The notes: generated by a model not told the origin, from the sequence alone. 64,000 bases of DNA from Promethearchaeia archaeon (GCA_029856155.1 JAHQWL010000055.1:1-64000); one strand, 5' to 3'; shown: positions 27,824 through 41,899, counted from the stretch's first letter. Numbers and translations: made by a program.

Positions 27824-28912
27824 TTATTTTTGATTTTTCAAATATTCATGCATTTCGACTAAAGTACTTGTTCTTATTAGAGCAGCTTTAAGAAATTGGA
27901 ATCCTATATCGTAAGTTGACCCGTCGCCTCCAATATGTATAACATAAGGCACTTCTCCATCAAATAAACCCTTTGCCTTAAGTATTTTATATGCCGTGCT
28001 TATTCCATCTGCTACAGTAGCACCAGATTCAAAAAGATGATGAACCCATGGCACACGCCAAGAACTTACGTTATCCTTTGAAGTTGATACTTCAGAGCAT
28101 GATGTATTATTTACATAAATGATGTTATCACCTGCAACTTGAGTTGCTGCTGTAGTCATTTGATTTAAAACCATCCCGGCTCCACATCCTGGGCAGAGGC
28201 CATGTCCTGGGGATAAGTGCGTTTGGGGTTCTAATGCTTTTCGGTTAATTCGATATATATCAATTGGTTTATCTGCGCCAAATTGTTCTATTAATCCTTT
28301 TAGTTTAATATTTCTTTGCTCTGTATAAAATATTATTTCGTCAATTTCCTTTTCCATGAATTTTGGCTTAAATAAGTGTCTGAATCGTCCCATAGATTTC
28401 AAATATTCAATAAATTTATCCTTATCTATATCTAATCCTCTATAATATGAGAATTTTGGCATTCCATCCGTTACACGAATAGTATATAGTGGCCAATACC
28501 CACAATCTGTAGCTAATTTCGATATTTTAACAGCATCTTCAGCAGCGTGTCTCCAACCTCTCATACAATCAGAGTATGCTTGAAGAAAAGAAGAGCCATT
28601 AGTTTTTAAAGCCTCAATAATTTTTCCCATAAAATCATTTGGATAAGCAGGGTTCAAGGTAGCTAAGAATAATGCATTAGAACCATAGAAAGCAAAAGGA
28701 GTAACTAAATCTTGTTTTACTCCAACTTTTCCAGGTATCTTCTCTCCTGCGGGACCAGTTGTAGTAGACGCGTAAGGAGGTGTAGCTCCACTTTCTTGTA
28801 TACCAGTATTCATAAACGCTTCATTATCATAATTAAAGAATAAAACGTTGTTTTTTCCATCTCTTGCTAGTAAATCTTCCATTTTTATAATATTTCTTTC
28901 TGGTTGCGACAT
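27824..28912 (-). CDS. porB: pyruvate/ketoisovalerate:ferredoxin oxidoreductase beta subunit, circularly permuted
   Basis: All PorB motifs present but in swapped order: YDNEAFMNTG (28-37) and CMRGW (116) come before GHGLCPGC (240/243), SCSEV (272) and GGDGSTYDIG (328-337). Confidence 0.88.
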   Translation of the reverse strand: MSQPERNIIKMEDLLARDGKNNVLFFNYDNEAFMNTGIQESGATPPYASTTTGPAGEKIPGKVGVKQDLVTPFAFYGSNALFLATLNPAYPNDFMGKIIEALKTNGSSFLQAYSDCMRGWRHAAEDAVKISKLATDCGYWPLYTIRVTDGMPKFSYYRGLDIDKDKFIEYLKSMGRFRHLFKPKFMEKEIDEIIFYTEQRNIKLKGLIEQFGADKPIDIYRINRKALEPQTHLSPGHGLCPGCGAGMVLNQMTTAATQVAGDNIIYVNNTSCSEVSTSKDNVSSWRVPWVHHLFESGATVADGISTAYKILKAKGLFDGEVPYVIHIGGDGSTYDIGFQFLKAALIRTSTLVEMHEYLKNQK

Positions 28913-30142
28913 TTATCTATCTACCCCCAAAATTTTATCTTTTGATTCTCTTACACCGAGATAAGAATAAAGAGATCCTTTCATATCTGTTACAGAAGCC
29001 ATTTTCTTTTTTGCGACAGTAAACTCATCCCTAGTAACATCTCGACCTCCCAAACCTACAATATAGCTTCTAAATATTGTTCCAAGGGGATATAGAGCTG
29101 AGGCAATTGTCATCGAAAATGGAGGTAAAAGTCCATTTAATGAATCTGATTTTTCTAAGATTATTAGTTTCTCGATATTGTGTTCTTGGACTATTTTTTG
29201 CAATTCTTCATAAGGAAATGGTCTGTAAGCACGTATTTTTATTAAACCTATGTCTTTATTTTTTGTCATCCAGCTTATTATGTTCCCACACATTGATCCC
29301 ATTGTAAGAAATGCTGTTTTTGACGAATTATCAAGATTAAATGTTTCAATTAAATCATATTCACGTCCAGTGGCATTCGCAAAATCTTTAAAACATTTTT
29401 TCATTATTCCTAAAACCGGTTTTTTATCTTCCTCCAATCTCATTCTACCCTCCATAAAATAATCAGGTGTCACAATTCCACCCCAAGTACCAGGCTTTTC
29501 AGGTGTTATATGATGCCTTGGCTTCTTTGGAGTTAGTTTTCTGACAACCTCATCGGAGATGAGAGTAAGGTTCTGTACTGAATGTGAAATAATAAAACCA
29601 TCATGCACAAACATCGTTGGAAAAAGAGAATCTTCTGAAATCATAACTGATATGATTGCAGCATCATAGGTCTCTTGCACGTTTTCAGATACAATGCAAT
29701 TCCATCCTAATTCAGAATTAGTTTGTGTGTATTCCCAGCTATTCCAAATTGACAAGTTGGGAGAATTAAATGCTCTCGCTGAAATCATCATGGTTAAAGG
29801 TACTCGCCATCCTACAGCCATAGGTAATGCTTCGGTCATTAATAAATAACCTTGAGAAGCTGTCGCTGTAAAAGTTCTAGCTCCCGCTGCACAAGCAGCT
29901 GTTGAATAACTTATTGCTGCTAATTCTGATTCAACATTTATAAATGCGGCTTTCAATCTTCCTTGATGAACTACATCAGATAGACCTTCAACTGATTGAG
30001 TTTGAGGTGTGATTGGAAATGCACAAATAACATCTGGATCTGTTTGTGTCACTCCGCCTGCTACAGCATAATTGCCTATCATCGTAGTTTCGATAGGCTC
30101 TTTAATTTCCTTGAAAAAAATACGCATTGGTTCTACACTCAT
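28913..30142 (-). CDS. porA: pyruvate/ketoisovalerate:ferredoxin oxidoreductase alpha subunit
   Basis: GNYAVA, FPITPQT, VESE, TATASQG, DGFIISH, GLGGRD; start ATG 30142 follows GGAGGTGA RBS (ORF track 30178). Confidence 0.9.
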   Translation of the reverse strand: MSVEPMRIFFKEIKEPIETTMIGNYAVAGGVTQTDPDVICAFPITPQTQSVEGLSDVVHQGRLKAAFINVESELAAISYSTAACAAGARTFTATASQGYLLMTEALPMAVGWRVPLTMMISARAFNSPNLSIWNSWEYTQTNSELGWNCIVSENVQETYDAAIISVMISEDSLFPTMFVHDGFIISHSVQNLTLISDEVVRKLTPKKPRHHITPEKPGTWGGIVTPDYFMEGRMRLEEDKKPVLGIMKKCFKDFANATGREYDLIETFNLDNSSKTAFLTMGSMCGNIISWMTKNKDIGLIKIRAYRPFPYEELQKIVQEHNIEKLIILEKSDSLNGLLPPFSMTIASALYPLGTIFRSYIVGLGGRDVTRDEFTVAKKKMASVTDMKGSLYSYLGVRESKDKILGVDR

Positions 30143-30146
30143 TGAA

Positions 30147-31154
30147 CTATTCACCTCCACTTTCTTCTGGTATTGCACAAGATGCGGGACCTTGTTTTAA
30201 TTTCTTACTTATAGCTTCTACAGGACATATATTTATACAATTCTGGCATGATTTACAATGAAAACTGTCTATTCCCGCCATGTGCCATAATCCATCATCT
30301 CCCTTTTCTCGAATTATCGCGAAATCTGGGCAAATATACCAACATTGAGCGCAATCAGTACATTTTTCTTTATCCCATATGATGTCCCATTCACCCCATG
30401 TTCCCGTCATTACCTGAGAACTTCCATAGGGAATGATATTTTCGTCACAATACCATACTCCTGCCTTATCCATCTCTTTATATCCCGGTAATCCAGGTTT
30501 TACTTGTTGCCAGGGTACTTTTGTATCTAAAGAAAAATTTATATCTATTCCAAGATCATACAAACAAGTTTCTTCAATAGCTTGTTTTATAGCTTGAATA
30601 TTTTTGCCTGCGATTGCACCTTTGAACCTTCTCATTATGGCATCAGATATTTCATCTAAGGAAAAGAGATAGGATACTCGAATTAAAGCACCTAAAATAA
30701 TAGTATTAGTTATATTTCTACCCAAAACCTCTAAAGCAATTCTCGTTGCATCTATTGTTGCCACATTTATATCTTTTCTTCCTACTATATCTTGGATGGA
30801 AGCTTGATCCATAACAGTATTTACAATTAACCAACCTCCTTTAGGCATACCGGCAGTTACATTAATTTCTCCTAAAAGAGAGGGATCTAAGACAGATACA
30901 AAATGAGGTCCATAAACTTGTTCATTGGATCGCACTAAATCTTCATTTAATGAAAGTCTAACATAACTTTCAGTTGGAGAACCCATTCTTTCAGCGCCGA
31001 AAAGAGGTTGACAAACACCATAGCCGCAAAAAGCTTCTACACACAAATTGGAAGCTGTAACCCCGCCTTGTCCACCTCTCGCATGGAACCTAAGGTTAAC
31101 TACCTCATTTCTTAAAACTTCTTTAATTCGTTCTGGAGTTAACATATTGAGCAA
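30147..31154 (-). CDS. fused Por gamma + delta subunit
   Basis: HARGGQGGVT, FGAERMG, NTIILGA (gamma), then TGTW, CTDCAQCWYICP and CKSCQNCINICP (delta 2x[4Fe-4S]). Confidence 0.88.
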   Translation of the reverse strand: MLNMLTPERIKEVLRNEVVNLRFHARGGQGGVTASNLCVEAFCGYGVCQPLFGAERMGSPTESYVRLSLNEDLVRSNEQVYGPHFVSVLDPSLLGEINVTAGMPKGGWLIVNTVMDQASIQDIVGRKDINVATIDATRIALEVLGRNITNTIILGALIRVSYLFSLDEISDAIMRRFKGAIAGKNIQAIKQAIEETCLYDLGIDINFSLDTKVPWQQVKPGLPGYKEMDKAGVWYCDENIIPYGSSQVMTGTWGEWDIIWDKEKCTDCAQCWYICPDFAIIREKGDDGLWHMAGIDSFHCKSCQNCINICPVEAISKKLKQGPASCAIPEESGGE

Positions 31155-41022: not shown

Positions 41023-41899
41023 TATCTTTAATTTTTCTTACAATTTTCTTATTTTGTGCAGTAGTCCGAACTTGCTCTATTTTTTTGCTAAATCCTTCTC
41101 GCTCCTCTTCTACAAATTCTCCGCATATAATTATCCCTTTCTTGAAATCAAAAGTTGCTTGATGAGGGGGCCAATCAAGCTTAATTCTAATTTGCTTTTT
41201 TAACCATTCTAACATCTCTACAGCATCACCTAATTTATTTTTGGACCCATATTGGATAAAACAAGGAGCAAGTACTTCTATAAAACTGAATCCTTGATTG
41301 TCTATGCATTTAAAAATACTTTTTTGTAATCTAAGTGTGTCATATGCAGGCCATCTAGCGACATATGTTGCTCCTGACGCAGCAGCTAGACTTACCAAAT
41401 TGAAGGGAGGTTCTACATTTCCATATGGGGTTGTTGAAGTAATGTCGCCAATCTGACTTGTAGGGGCTACTTGACCTCCAGTCATGCCATATATGTTGTT
41501 ATTAATACAGAGAACCGTTAGTTCTATATTTCTTCTTGCAGCGTGGATAAAATGATTTCCACCAATAGCAAAAAGATCTCCATCTCCCGATAGAACTATA
41601 ACTTTTAATTTAGGATTTGCTAATTTTATACCAGTTGCAAAGGGTATAGCTCTCCCATGTGTAGTATGGAAGGCAGGTGCTTTAAAGCAGCCACTAGATC
41701 GACCAGTACATCCTATGCCAGATACAATGGCATAATCTTTAGATGTGAGTCCTCTTTCTATTAAGCAGCGTGTAATTGATGTAATTACAGTTCCAATTAA
41801 ACAACCTGGGCAAAAAATAAATCGGTGTAAATTTAACATTTCTATTAAGGGATGACCAAGCGCTTCAGGAGGGATTGAGATTTGATCTGATGGACTCAT
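41015..41899 (-). CDS. korB: 2-oxoacid (2-oxoglutarate-type):ferredoxin oxidoreductase beta subunit
   Basis: FCPGC, SGIGC, THGRA, GDGD..NNNIYGMTGGQ, APC in canonical order. Confidence 0.9.
   Translation of the reverse strand: MSPSDQISIPPEALGHPLIEMLNLHRFIFCPGCLIGTVITSITRCLIERGLTSKDYAIVSGIGCTGRSSGCFKAPAFHTTHGRAIPFATGIKLANPKLKVIVLSGDGDLFAIGGNHFIHAARRNIELTVLCINNNIYGMTGGQVAPTSQIGDITSTTPYGNVEPPFNLVSLAAASGATYVARWPAYDTLRLQKSIFKCIDNQGFSFIEVLAPCFIQYGSKNKLGDAVEMLEWLKKQIRIKLDWPPHQATFDFKKGIIICGEFVEEEREGFSKKIEQVRTTAQNKKIVRKIKDSD

Follow-up and report, generated by a model that had tools for sequence, protein, structure and literature searches.

A naturally circularly permuted beta subunit of a 2-oxoacid:ferredoxin oxidoreductase in a class of Asgard archaea

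Few signatures in enzymology are as conserved as the GDG...N motif, which binds thiamine diphosphate (ThDP) and, to our knowledge, is treated as contiguous in all ThDP enzymes. We analyzed a window of 64,000 nucleotides from a Promethearchaeia archaeon (GCA_029856155.1, JAHQWL010000055.1:1-64000) in which one gene, on the minus strand at 27824..28912, departs from this rule. Its product, which we call cp-beta, resembles the beta subunit (domain VI) of 2-oxoacid:ferredoxin oxidoreductases (OFORs). We found that the chain order of cp-beta is naturally circularly permuted: both halves are homologous to one contiguous protein family and their order is swapped. The permuted form is kept by purifying selection. 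It is highly probable that cp-beta functions as the beta subunit of a three-gene OFOR of the POR/VOR type, in which it binds ThDP and a [4Fe-4S] cluster, and that it was permuted once and is under selection. A first-pass annotation made from the sequence alone had proposed the permutation and knew of no description of it; literature searches turned up no published description of the permuted form.

Chain order of the permuted beta subunit

The case for permutation rests on alignments in which the two halves of cp-beta match a canonical subunit in reverse order. In a phmmer search of all PDB chains, PorB of Methanosarcina acetivorans (9bt4_C, E 8.7e-49) matched in two stretches, with residues 228-347 of cp-beta corresponding to chain positions 5-115 and residues 22-204 to positions 118-292. 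The beta chain of oxalate oxidoreductase (OOR), 5c4i_C, gave the same swapped two-stretch pattern (E 3e-45). When the halves were run separately against the NCBIfam PorB, VorB and OOR-beta models, aa 1-215 matched model positions ~118-290 and aa 216-362 matched ~5-122, as the first-pass annotation had expected of its first and second parts. No full-length colinear alignment to a canonical PorB was found. The Pfam family TPP_enzyme_C (PF02775) was matched only at profile positions 72-150, by aa 20-111, with 20.7 bits against a cut-off of 21.9. The same profile aligns in one colinear stretch to the KorB-type beta encoded elsewhere in the window, which thus serves as the canonical-order internal control that had been claimed for it, and likewise to two paralogous betas that the genome encodes on contigs C4 and C1. 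The gene and its segments are as follows.

27824..28912, minus strand: cp-beta, circularly permuted OFOR beta subunit (domain VI); intact open reading frame of 362 aa plus stop, swapped alignment to 9bt4_C and 5c4i_C, 104 full-length family members
28856..28912, minus strand: new N-terminal extension, aa 1-19, with conserved NIIxxEDLLxR; strand 6-10 and helix 11-15 in the model, with a predicted local distance difference test score (pLDDT) of 78-92
28301..28855, minus strand: aa 20-204, equivalent to the canonical PorB C-terminal half (~118-292), with strand 21-29, YDNEAFMNTG, C116, GRFRHL and the old C-terminal helix; PDB, NCBIfam and structural alignments
28802..28831, minus strand: YDNEAFMNTG (aa 28-37), second half of the ThDP/Mg motif
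28565..28567, minus strand: Cys116 codon (SDCMRGW); the fourth cysteine that binds the proximal [4Fe-4S] cluster, equivalent to the one in CPTGW of 9bt4_C
28232..28300, minus strand: linker, aa 205-227, from the old C-terminus to the old N-terminus, outside both homologous stretches; helix end and strand 212-221 in the model, pLDDT 81-91
27872..28231, minus strand: aa 228-347, equivalent to the canonical PorB N-terminal half (5-115), with C240xxC243, C272, VPW, FES, and GGDG with the following helix; PDB, NCBIfam and structural alignments
28184..28195, minus strand: Cys240 and Cys243 codons (GHGLCPGC), cluster ligands by PDB alignment
28097..28099, minus strand: Cys272 codon (NTSCSEV), cluster ligand by PDB alignment
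27902..27931, minus strand: GGDGSTYDIG (aa 328-337), first half of the ThDP/Mg motif
27824..27871, minus strand: new C-terminal tail, aa 348-362 plus stop; variable in the alignment and helical in the model

The motif positions reported earlier were all right (YDNEAFMNTG 28-37, SDC116MRGW, GRFRHL 175-180, GHGLC240PGC243, SC272SEV, VPW, FES and GGDGSTYDIGFQFL at 328-341). The linker, put at ~25 aa, is shortened here to about 20 (205-227): the old C-terminal helix ends near aa 204 and the old N-terminus restarts near aa 226-228.

Where has the chain been cut? A contiguous GDG-x(25-30)-N motif is absent from cp-beta, in which the N, at aa 30, precedes the GDG, at aa 329-331, by ~300 residues. The chain has been opened between the post-GDG helix (…DIGFQFLKAALIR), now C-terminal, and the pre-DNE strand (…NVLFFNYDNE), now N-terminal. 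In the beta-alpha-beta unit that carries this motif, the GDG and NN loops are both found along the C-terminal edge of the sheet, and the other edge carries the helix-to-strand turn. Because the cut is in the helix-to-strand turn, the motif can be split in sequence while the Mg-diphosphate site is rebuilt from both ends. The earlier claim of a split motif therefore holds for the sequence, whereas topology suggests that the break itself sits in a loop at the helix end far from the diphosphate/Mg site.

The residues expected of an active subunit have been kept. Among 15 sampled family members, down to 53% identity, C116, C240, C243, C272, G329-D330-G331 and Y28-D29-N30-E31-A32..N35-T36-G37 are invariant. 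The Mg-diphosphate residues of GDG and DNE..NTG and all four cluster cysteines align to 9bt4_C, and the cysteines also align to 5c4i_C, which bears out the claim that all four were retained. Against the closest fetched ortholog (L012), the ratio of nonsynonymous to synonymous substitution rates (dN/dS, Nei-Gojobori) is 0.042 at a dS of about 1.16. Moreover, the proportion of nonsynonymous differences (pN) is far below that of synonymous differences (pS) in each of the segments that the permutation created, namely the N-terminus (0.068 vs 0.465), the linker (0.060 vs 0.549) and the tail (0.027 vs 0.391).

How does cp-beta compare with known systems? Like M. acetivorans PorB (9bt4_C; NF008819), to which both halves are homologous, it has the same GDG and DNE..NTG and the same four cysteines. 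Unlike that protein, it has the equivalent of PorB 118-292 first and of 5-115 last, joined by the linker of ~20 aa, and it carries a new N-terminal extension and a new tail. Its highest identity to any canonical relative is about 46-48%. Split-gene transketolase demonstrates that the ThDP scaffold tolerates splitting. The order of whole domains varies among ThDP enzymes, in which the pyrophosphate-binding (PP) and pyrimidine-binding (PYR) domains are arranged as PP-PYR-X in transketolase and E1 and as PYR-X-PP in decarboxylases and acetohydroxyacid synthase (bioRxiv 10.1101/2021.03.21.436335). Inside the PP domain, GDG-x(25-30)-N is contiguous and has been called "strictly maintained" (bioRxiv 10.1101/2021.03.21.436335; see also PMC2831816). 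In contrast to the domain permutants and split transketolase, in which whole domains have moved, the break in cp-beta is inside the PP domain and within the motif.

Operon, distribution and origin

The cp-beta gene is the last of a three-gene operon in the order gamma-delta, alpha, cp-beta. The alpha TAA stop directly abuts the cp-beta ATG (TAAATG) with zero spacer, in line with the first-pass description of an intact frame next to porA, and an SD-like (Shine-Dalgarno-like) GGGGGT stretch lies 8-13 nt upstream of the cp-beta start. The start of alpha is ambiguous, either GTG at 30178 or ATG at 30142. The GTG would overlap the gamma-delta gene by 32 nt; since alpha conservation begins near M13/M18, the ATG at 30142 is a plausible start. 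A promoter and terminator consensus scan gave nothing above shuffled sequences; its consensus is of bacterial type. The neighboring genes and the internal control are as follows.

28913..30178, minus strand: alpha subunit (POR_N and PFOR_II) with the motif FPITPQT; Pfam, match to 9bt4_B at E 2.3e-55, same taxonomic distribution as cp-beta
30147..31154, minus strand: gamma-delta fusion (POR gamma domain and 2x[4Fe-4S] ferredoxin domain); Pfam PF01558 and Fer4 families, NCBIfam PorC/PorD models
41273..41689, minus strand: PF02775 match, within a 295-aa frame, of the canonical-order KorB-type beta; profile positions 21-151 in one stretch, 117.6 bits

The permuted form is widespread in protein databases. 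A word-indexed search of 5.8 billion proteins returned >100 clusters of colinear homologs of ~362 aa at 54-95% identity, drawn from JGI, ENA, NCBI and Logan assemblies, and the swapped motif order was present in 120/120 among the matches listed. When 1.84 billion 50%-identity representatives were scanned exhaustively with HMMER, a single full-length protein, P0122 (54% identity), was colinear, alongside some fragments, and below about 210 bits every match was in two stretches and of canonical order. No second permuted lineage emerged when the motif order of the 150 best representatives was checked.

Within the phylum, cp-beta is confined almost entirely to one class, where most of the genomes sampled encode it. 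It was present in 130 of 400 species-level genomes sampled, all but one of them in the window's own class. In the same order as the window's genome it occurs in 106/134 genomes of family f1, 1/1 of f2, 12/14 of f3 and 4/4 of f4, and elsewhere in the class in 1/3 of f5, 2/2 of f6 and 2/2 of f7. Five of the genomes that encode it are closed single contigs (G135, G138, G143, G189 and G279). Only G075 matched outside the class: this genome, whose contamination is 8%, yielded an 82%-identical fragment lying at the end of a contig; its short contigs C23 and C29 are 82-87% identical to f1 sequences. We therefore regard the G075 match as probable mis-binning rather than lateral transfer. The survey supports the proposed lineage-specific permutation and narrows that lineage to one class, rather than Asgard archaea at large.

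The partner alpha gene has followed the same path. Its orthologs (E <= 1e-90) are distributed identically, in 130/400 genomes of the same families, and the whole operon is therefore class-specific. With alpha as the query at the same threshold, no canonical pre-permutation ortholog was found elsewhere in the phylum. The order gamma-delta, alpha, cp-beta is kept in 7/8 distant loci; the exception is closed genome G279, in which cp-beta (L009, within C1:1498500-1505500) and the alpha ortholog (C1:2045958-2047172) are unlinked, about 540 kb apart. Separately, at locus L018 (G258:C34:1-3400) alpha aa 1-331 and cp-beta aa 20-361 share one open frame of 715 aa that is missing ~74 residues across the alpha C-terminus and beta N-terminus, which could reflect a deletion-fusion or an assembly error.

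To place the permuted form in the family, 15 permuted sequences were rotated to canonical order by script and joined with 46 canonical betas and the host genome's own paralogs in a quick IQ-TREE search, in which the KorB outgroup had a very long branch. All permuted sequences group in one clade (SH-aLRT, the Shimodaira-Hasegawa-like approximate likelihood-ratio test, 100) with a stem of 1.35 substitutions per site and short internal branches. The clade branches where the POR/VOR radiation is poorly resolved, and the host genome's C1 and C4 betas are not its sister group. By score, the nearest canonical relatives are PorB proteins labelled Bathyarchaeia and intein-bearing PorB proteins labelled Altiarchaeales. 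Together these findings suggest that the permutation arose once, before the radiation of this Asgard class, in a class-specific accessory OFOR paralog.

The permutation may have originated by duplication and truncation or by fission and refusion. A candidate footprint of duplication and truncation was rejected: a greedy hhalign extension placed aa 6-21 on the canonical post-GDG helix with a posterior confidence of only 0-0.2, and a gapless profile scan placed the in-register offset 4th-5th among about 290 (z about 2.6-2.8), no better than unrelated helices. Natural split-gene intermediates were rejected as well. The short single-stretch proteins P0217, P0223 and P0250-P0253 proved to be truncated gene calls or fragments from contig edges, and P0217, a candidate half-gene, shares its cluster with a full-length protein of 301 aa.

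A different kind of interruption affects the closest non-permuted relatives, which match both halves of cp-beta at 46-47% identity. In the canonical PorB proteins P0126, P0136, P0160, P0167, P0185 and P0202 (750-860 aa; some labelled Altiarchaeales), the ThDP motif is interrupted, as it is in cp-beta, but here by a ~540-aa intein that carries a LAGLIDADG endonuclease. The intein starts at ...HDFTYV|C..., within a few residues of the Loki-type cut; in P0245 (413 aa) an apparent intein lies right at GDG|S. These proteins are not intermediates because the intein self-splices after translation and leaves canonical order. A "beta-N / alpha / beta-C" architecture in P0126 and others (GDG ~100, NTG ~675) was also dismissed, as the insert is the intein with its endonuclease and has no similarity to alpha.

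Function and competing readings

How would a subunit with its cofactor motif divided between the termini work? The AlphaFold2 (AF2) monomer model (predicted template modelling score 0.80, mean pLDDT 70) is confident in strand 6-10, helix 11-15, strand 21-29 and the linker. Structural comparison by VIA matched the two halves separately, with model residues 19-209 equivalent to pyruvate:ferredoxin oxidoreductase (PFOR) 984-1170 (Z 9.7) and residues 226-362 to the KorB chain 6n2n_B (Z 3.9). The two halves are placed relative to each other in the monomer and complex models, and three-dimensional equivalence of the whole domain to a canonical PP domain is presumed.

Modelling of the alpha/cp-beta pair, a part of the complex that the first-pass annotation had wanted modelled, places cp-beta on alpha in the predicted structure. 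Three runs gave ipSAE scores of 0.81, 0.82 and 0.81, compared with 0.00 for the best of three controls; the mark attained by the alpha/cp-beta pair was reached by 58/80 solved complexes and 2/110 mismatched pairs. The runs share at least 95% of contacts, with a partner pLDDT of 85-86, and the modelled interface comprises aa 262-316, helix 339-347 and tail residues 353-358, of which 353-355 and 358 touch alpha. Since similar complexes have already been solved, the score shows likeness to them and not binding by this copy. Like M. acetivorans PFOR, the enzyme has an adjacent alpha with PITPQT and, in the model, an alpha/beta interface, and unlike four-subunit archaeal PFOR it has gamma and delta fused. 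In its three polypeptides, with a fused subunit of domain III and ferredoxin domain, it resembles the OOR of Moorella thermoacetica (5c4i, 5exd, 5exe), which does not use CoA; unlike cp-beta, the OOR beta has canonical order, and the OOR alpha has PIRPYT in place of PITPQT.

From these comparisons we infer the details of the fold, cofactor binding, activity and substrate. The protein would fold into the usual PP domain with the old C-terminal half first and a structured linker of ~20 residues leading to the old N-terminus. The beta-alpha-beta ThDP unit would be closed without a covalent link, with strand 21-29 beside the pre-GDG strand 323-328. The C-terminal segment would contribute D330 and the N-terminal one D29/N30 to hold the Mg-diphosphate, and the proximal [4Fe-4S] cluster would be bound by C240, C243, C272 and C116. 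Electrons would then pass from ThDP to the proximal cluster, to the two gamma-delta clusters and on to ferredoxin, as in other OFORs.

Several observations weigh against cp-beta as a working subunit. In the monomer model, pLDDT is <50 in the cofactor and cluster loops (30-67, 117-121, 237-242 and 272-293); low values there are commonly seen when a beta subunit is modelled alone, with neither cofactors nor partner. Sequential structure aligners recover one half only (Foldseek TMt 0.46 to 9bt4_C), and half-length matches (Z 8-10 over about 150-170 residues) are what a permutation is expected to give but fall short of proof that the whole domain is equivalent. All three subunits miss their NCBIfam equivalog cut-offs, with scores of 215.7 vs 405 for beta (NF008819, PorB), 303 vs 550 for alpha and 159 vs 225 for gamma, and cp-beta was missed by a six-frame PF02775 search of the host genome. 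For cp-beta itself, failure at the Pfam and PorB thresholds is due at least partly to the permutation. Finally, near-complete or closed congeners (same genus; G179, G182, G199, G188 and others) lack both alpha and cp-beta. The enzyme is therefore dispensable, an accessory paralog and not a core gene. On the other side, an OFOR alpha with its PYR domain is encoded next to cp-beta and is co-distributed with it in a conserved operon. The function that the first-pass annotation thought probable is also indicated, as far as sequence goes, by the invariant catalytic residues, the low dN/dS and the kept operon.

Which 2-oxoacid does the enzyme use? The protein had first been named PorB, and Por-type models do score best among equivalog models for all three subunits; with the cut-offs missed, pyruvate is a possible substrate. 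An alternative to that name is a functional permuted OFOR for a branched-chain, aromatic or other 2-oxoacid, and the "PorB" label would then be wrong. We regard this as a serious possibility that falls somewhat short of an even chance. VorB and OOR-beta models score nearly as high as PorB on cp-beta. Moreover, the host genome encodes seven OFOR alpha genes, so its paralogs are probably specialized, and the permuted clade sits on its long branch in a poorly resolved region of the POR/VOR tree. The best-scoring Por-type models speak for pyruvate instead; for gamma, the one model that passes its cut-off is a POR/VOR-family subfamily model, TIGR02175. The closest solved chain, that of M. acetivorans PFOR, likewise speaks for pyruvate. 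The alpha motif FPITPQT aligns to YPITPQT of 9bt4_B, a substrate-pocket motif of PFOR type, and has Thr in place of the oxalate-type Arg of 5c4i_A, the residue to which the second carboxylate binds (PITPQT where that chain has PIRPYT). Because of the scores below cut-off, the seven alpha genes and the loss of the operon from congeners, we file the enzyme as an accessory OFOR of POR/VOR type.

A further alternative is that cp-beta is an inactive relic or a structural pseudo-subunit, in which ThDP binding was destroyed and the protein took another role or is decaying. The discontinuous motif, the missed Pfam and NCBIfam cut-offs, the long stem branch and the absence of the operon from some congeners could all be read in this way. 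A relic would hardly be expected to keep every ThDP/Mg and cluster ligand invariant across the 15-sequence sample, to show a dN/dS of 0.04 or to retain its operon and the abutting stop and start codons. The co-evolving alpha also retains catalytic PYR-domain motifs, and the cut, by its inferred topology, lies in a loop remote from the cofactor. Decay or loss of ThDP binding is thus very improbable, and a working OFOR beta subunit is the reading we favor.

An assembly or gene-calling artefact, in which a chimeric contig or a collapsed tandem duplicate produced the swapped order, is rejected with near certainty even though the window's genome is in 104 contigs with 5.7% estimated contamination, because the same order recurs in independent assemblies (130 species-level genomes, five of them single-contig, and >100 protein clusters from JGI, ENA, NCBI and Logan with identities as low as 52%) and the linker is under purifying selection. 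The misassembly that the first-pass annotation had named as a possible refutation is thereby excluded.

Hairpin inserts and wider meaning

Five cp-beta orthologs from sister genera carry hairpin inserts of 30 or 31 nt beside the NTG codons, at sites homologous to ~28790-28805 in the window, whose own gene has no insert. The insert-bearing loci are as follows.

L014 (G163:C1, ~39350): type A insert, 30 nt
L015 (G274:C195): type A insert, 30 nt
L016 (G273:C59): type A insert, 30 nt
L017 (G159:C127): type A insert, 31 nt
L019 (G276:C6, ~79400): type B insert, 31 nt

The type A insert follows directly after codon G37 and brings an in-frame stop. It forms a hairpin of 7-9 bp with four compensatory pairs among the four sequences. 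The junction nucleotides are unpaired and have a helix on either side, one between exon1 and the intron (CTG/CAG) and one between exon1 and exon2. The type B insert lies 7 nt downstream of the type A site and is unrelated in sequence. Folded by eye, it adopts a near-canonical helix-bulge-helix-bulge-helix with outer helix ACCGGA/TCTGGT, central helix TCCA/TGGA, inner stem GAATTCTAC/GTAGAATTC and bulges AGG and AAAA, and junctions that restore the frame are present in both bulges. Congeners of the insert-bearing genomes lack the inserts.

Removal of the insert restored frames of 358-364 codons in the three type A orthologs tested (G163, G274 and G159), and between these insert-free genes pN is about 0.15 vs a pS of 0.75-0.80. 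Intact frames and purifying selection indicate that the genes are still selected, and therefore that the insert must be removed or bypassed. A selenocysteine reading of the in-frame TGA, present in three orthologs, was rejected: the homologous L017 insert is 31 nt long and shifts the frame, and the L019 insert is different. By sequence and predicted folding, the inserts look like candidate bulge-helix-bulge mRNA mini-introns. An intron of this kind reportedly interrupts the cbf5 pre-mRNA of Crenarchaeota. If the tRNA-splicing endonuclease does excise the inserts, they would apparently be the first protein-coding introns reported in Asgard archaea.

What does a permuted beta subunit mean for the organisms that encode it? 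The cp-beta orthologs are mostly "hypothetical protein" in NCBI records, because domain models miss the protein, although some carry an OFOR beta subunit label at JGI. As a consequence, OFOR operons of Loki-type Asgard archaea seem to be without a beta subunit, which can distort the metabolic reconstructions used in eukaryogenesis scenarios. Since the permuted form has a single origin and a class-wide distribution, it is also usable as a rare-genomic-change marker for the class, a use that the first-pass annotation had suggested and that its restriction to one clade and one class supports.

A selected enzyme whose motif is divided over the two termini would indicate that no covalent link is needed to close the PP domain, and cp-beta would offer a natural test case for the folding and protein engineering of ThDP enzymes. 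Altered properties are possible because the new ends, a conserved strand-helix at one terminus and a tail that touches alpha in the model at the other, could tune assembly, substrate range or regulation. We tentatively propose, as an idea with perhaps one chance in three, that the permuted beta marks a class-specific OFOR with altered properties and that, separately, the gene acquired two unrelated bulge-helix-bulge-like inserts in sister genera.

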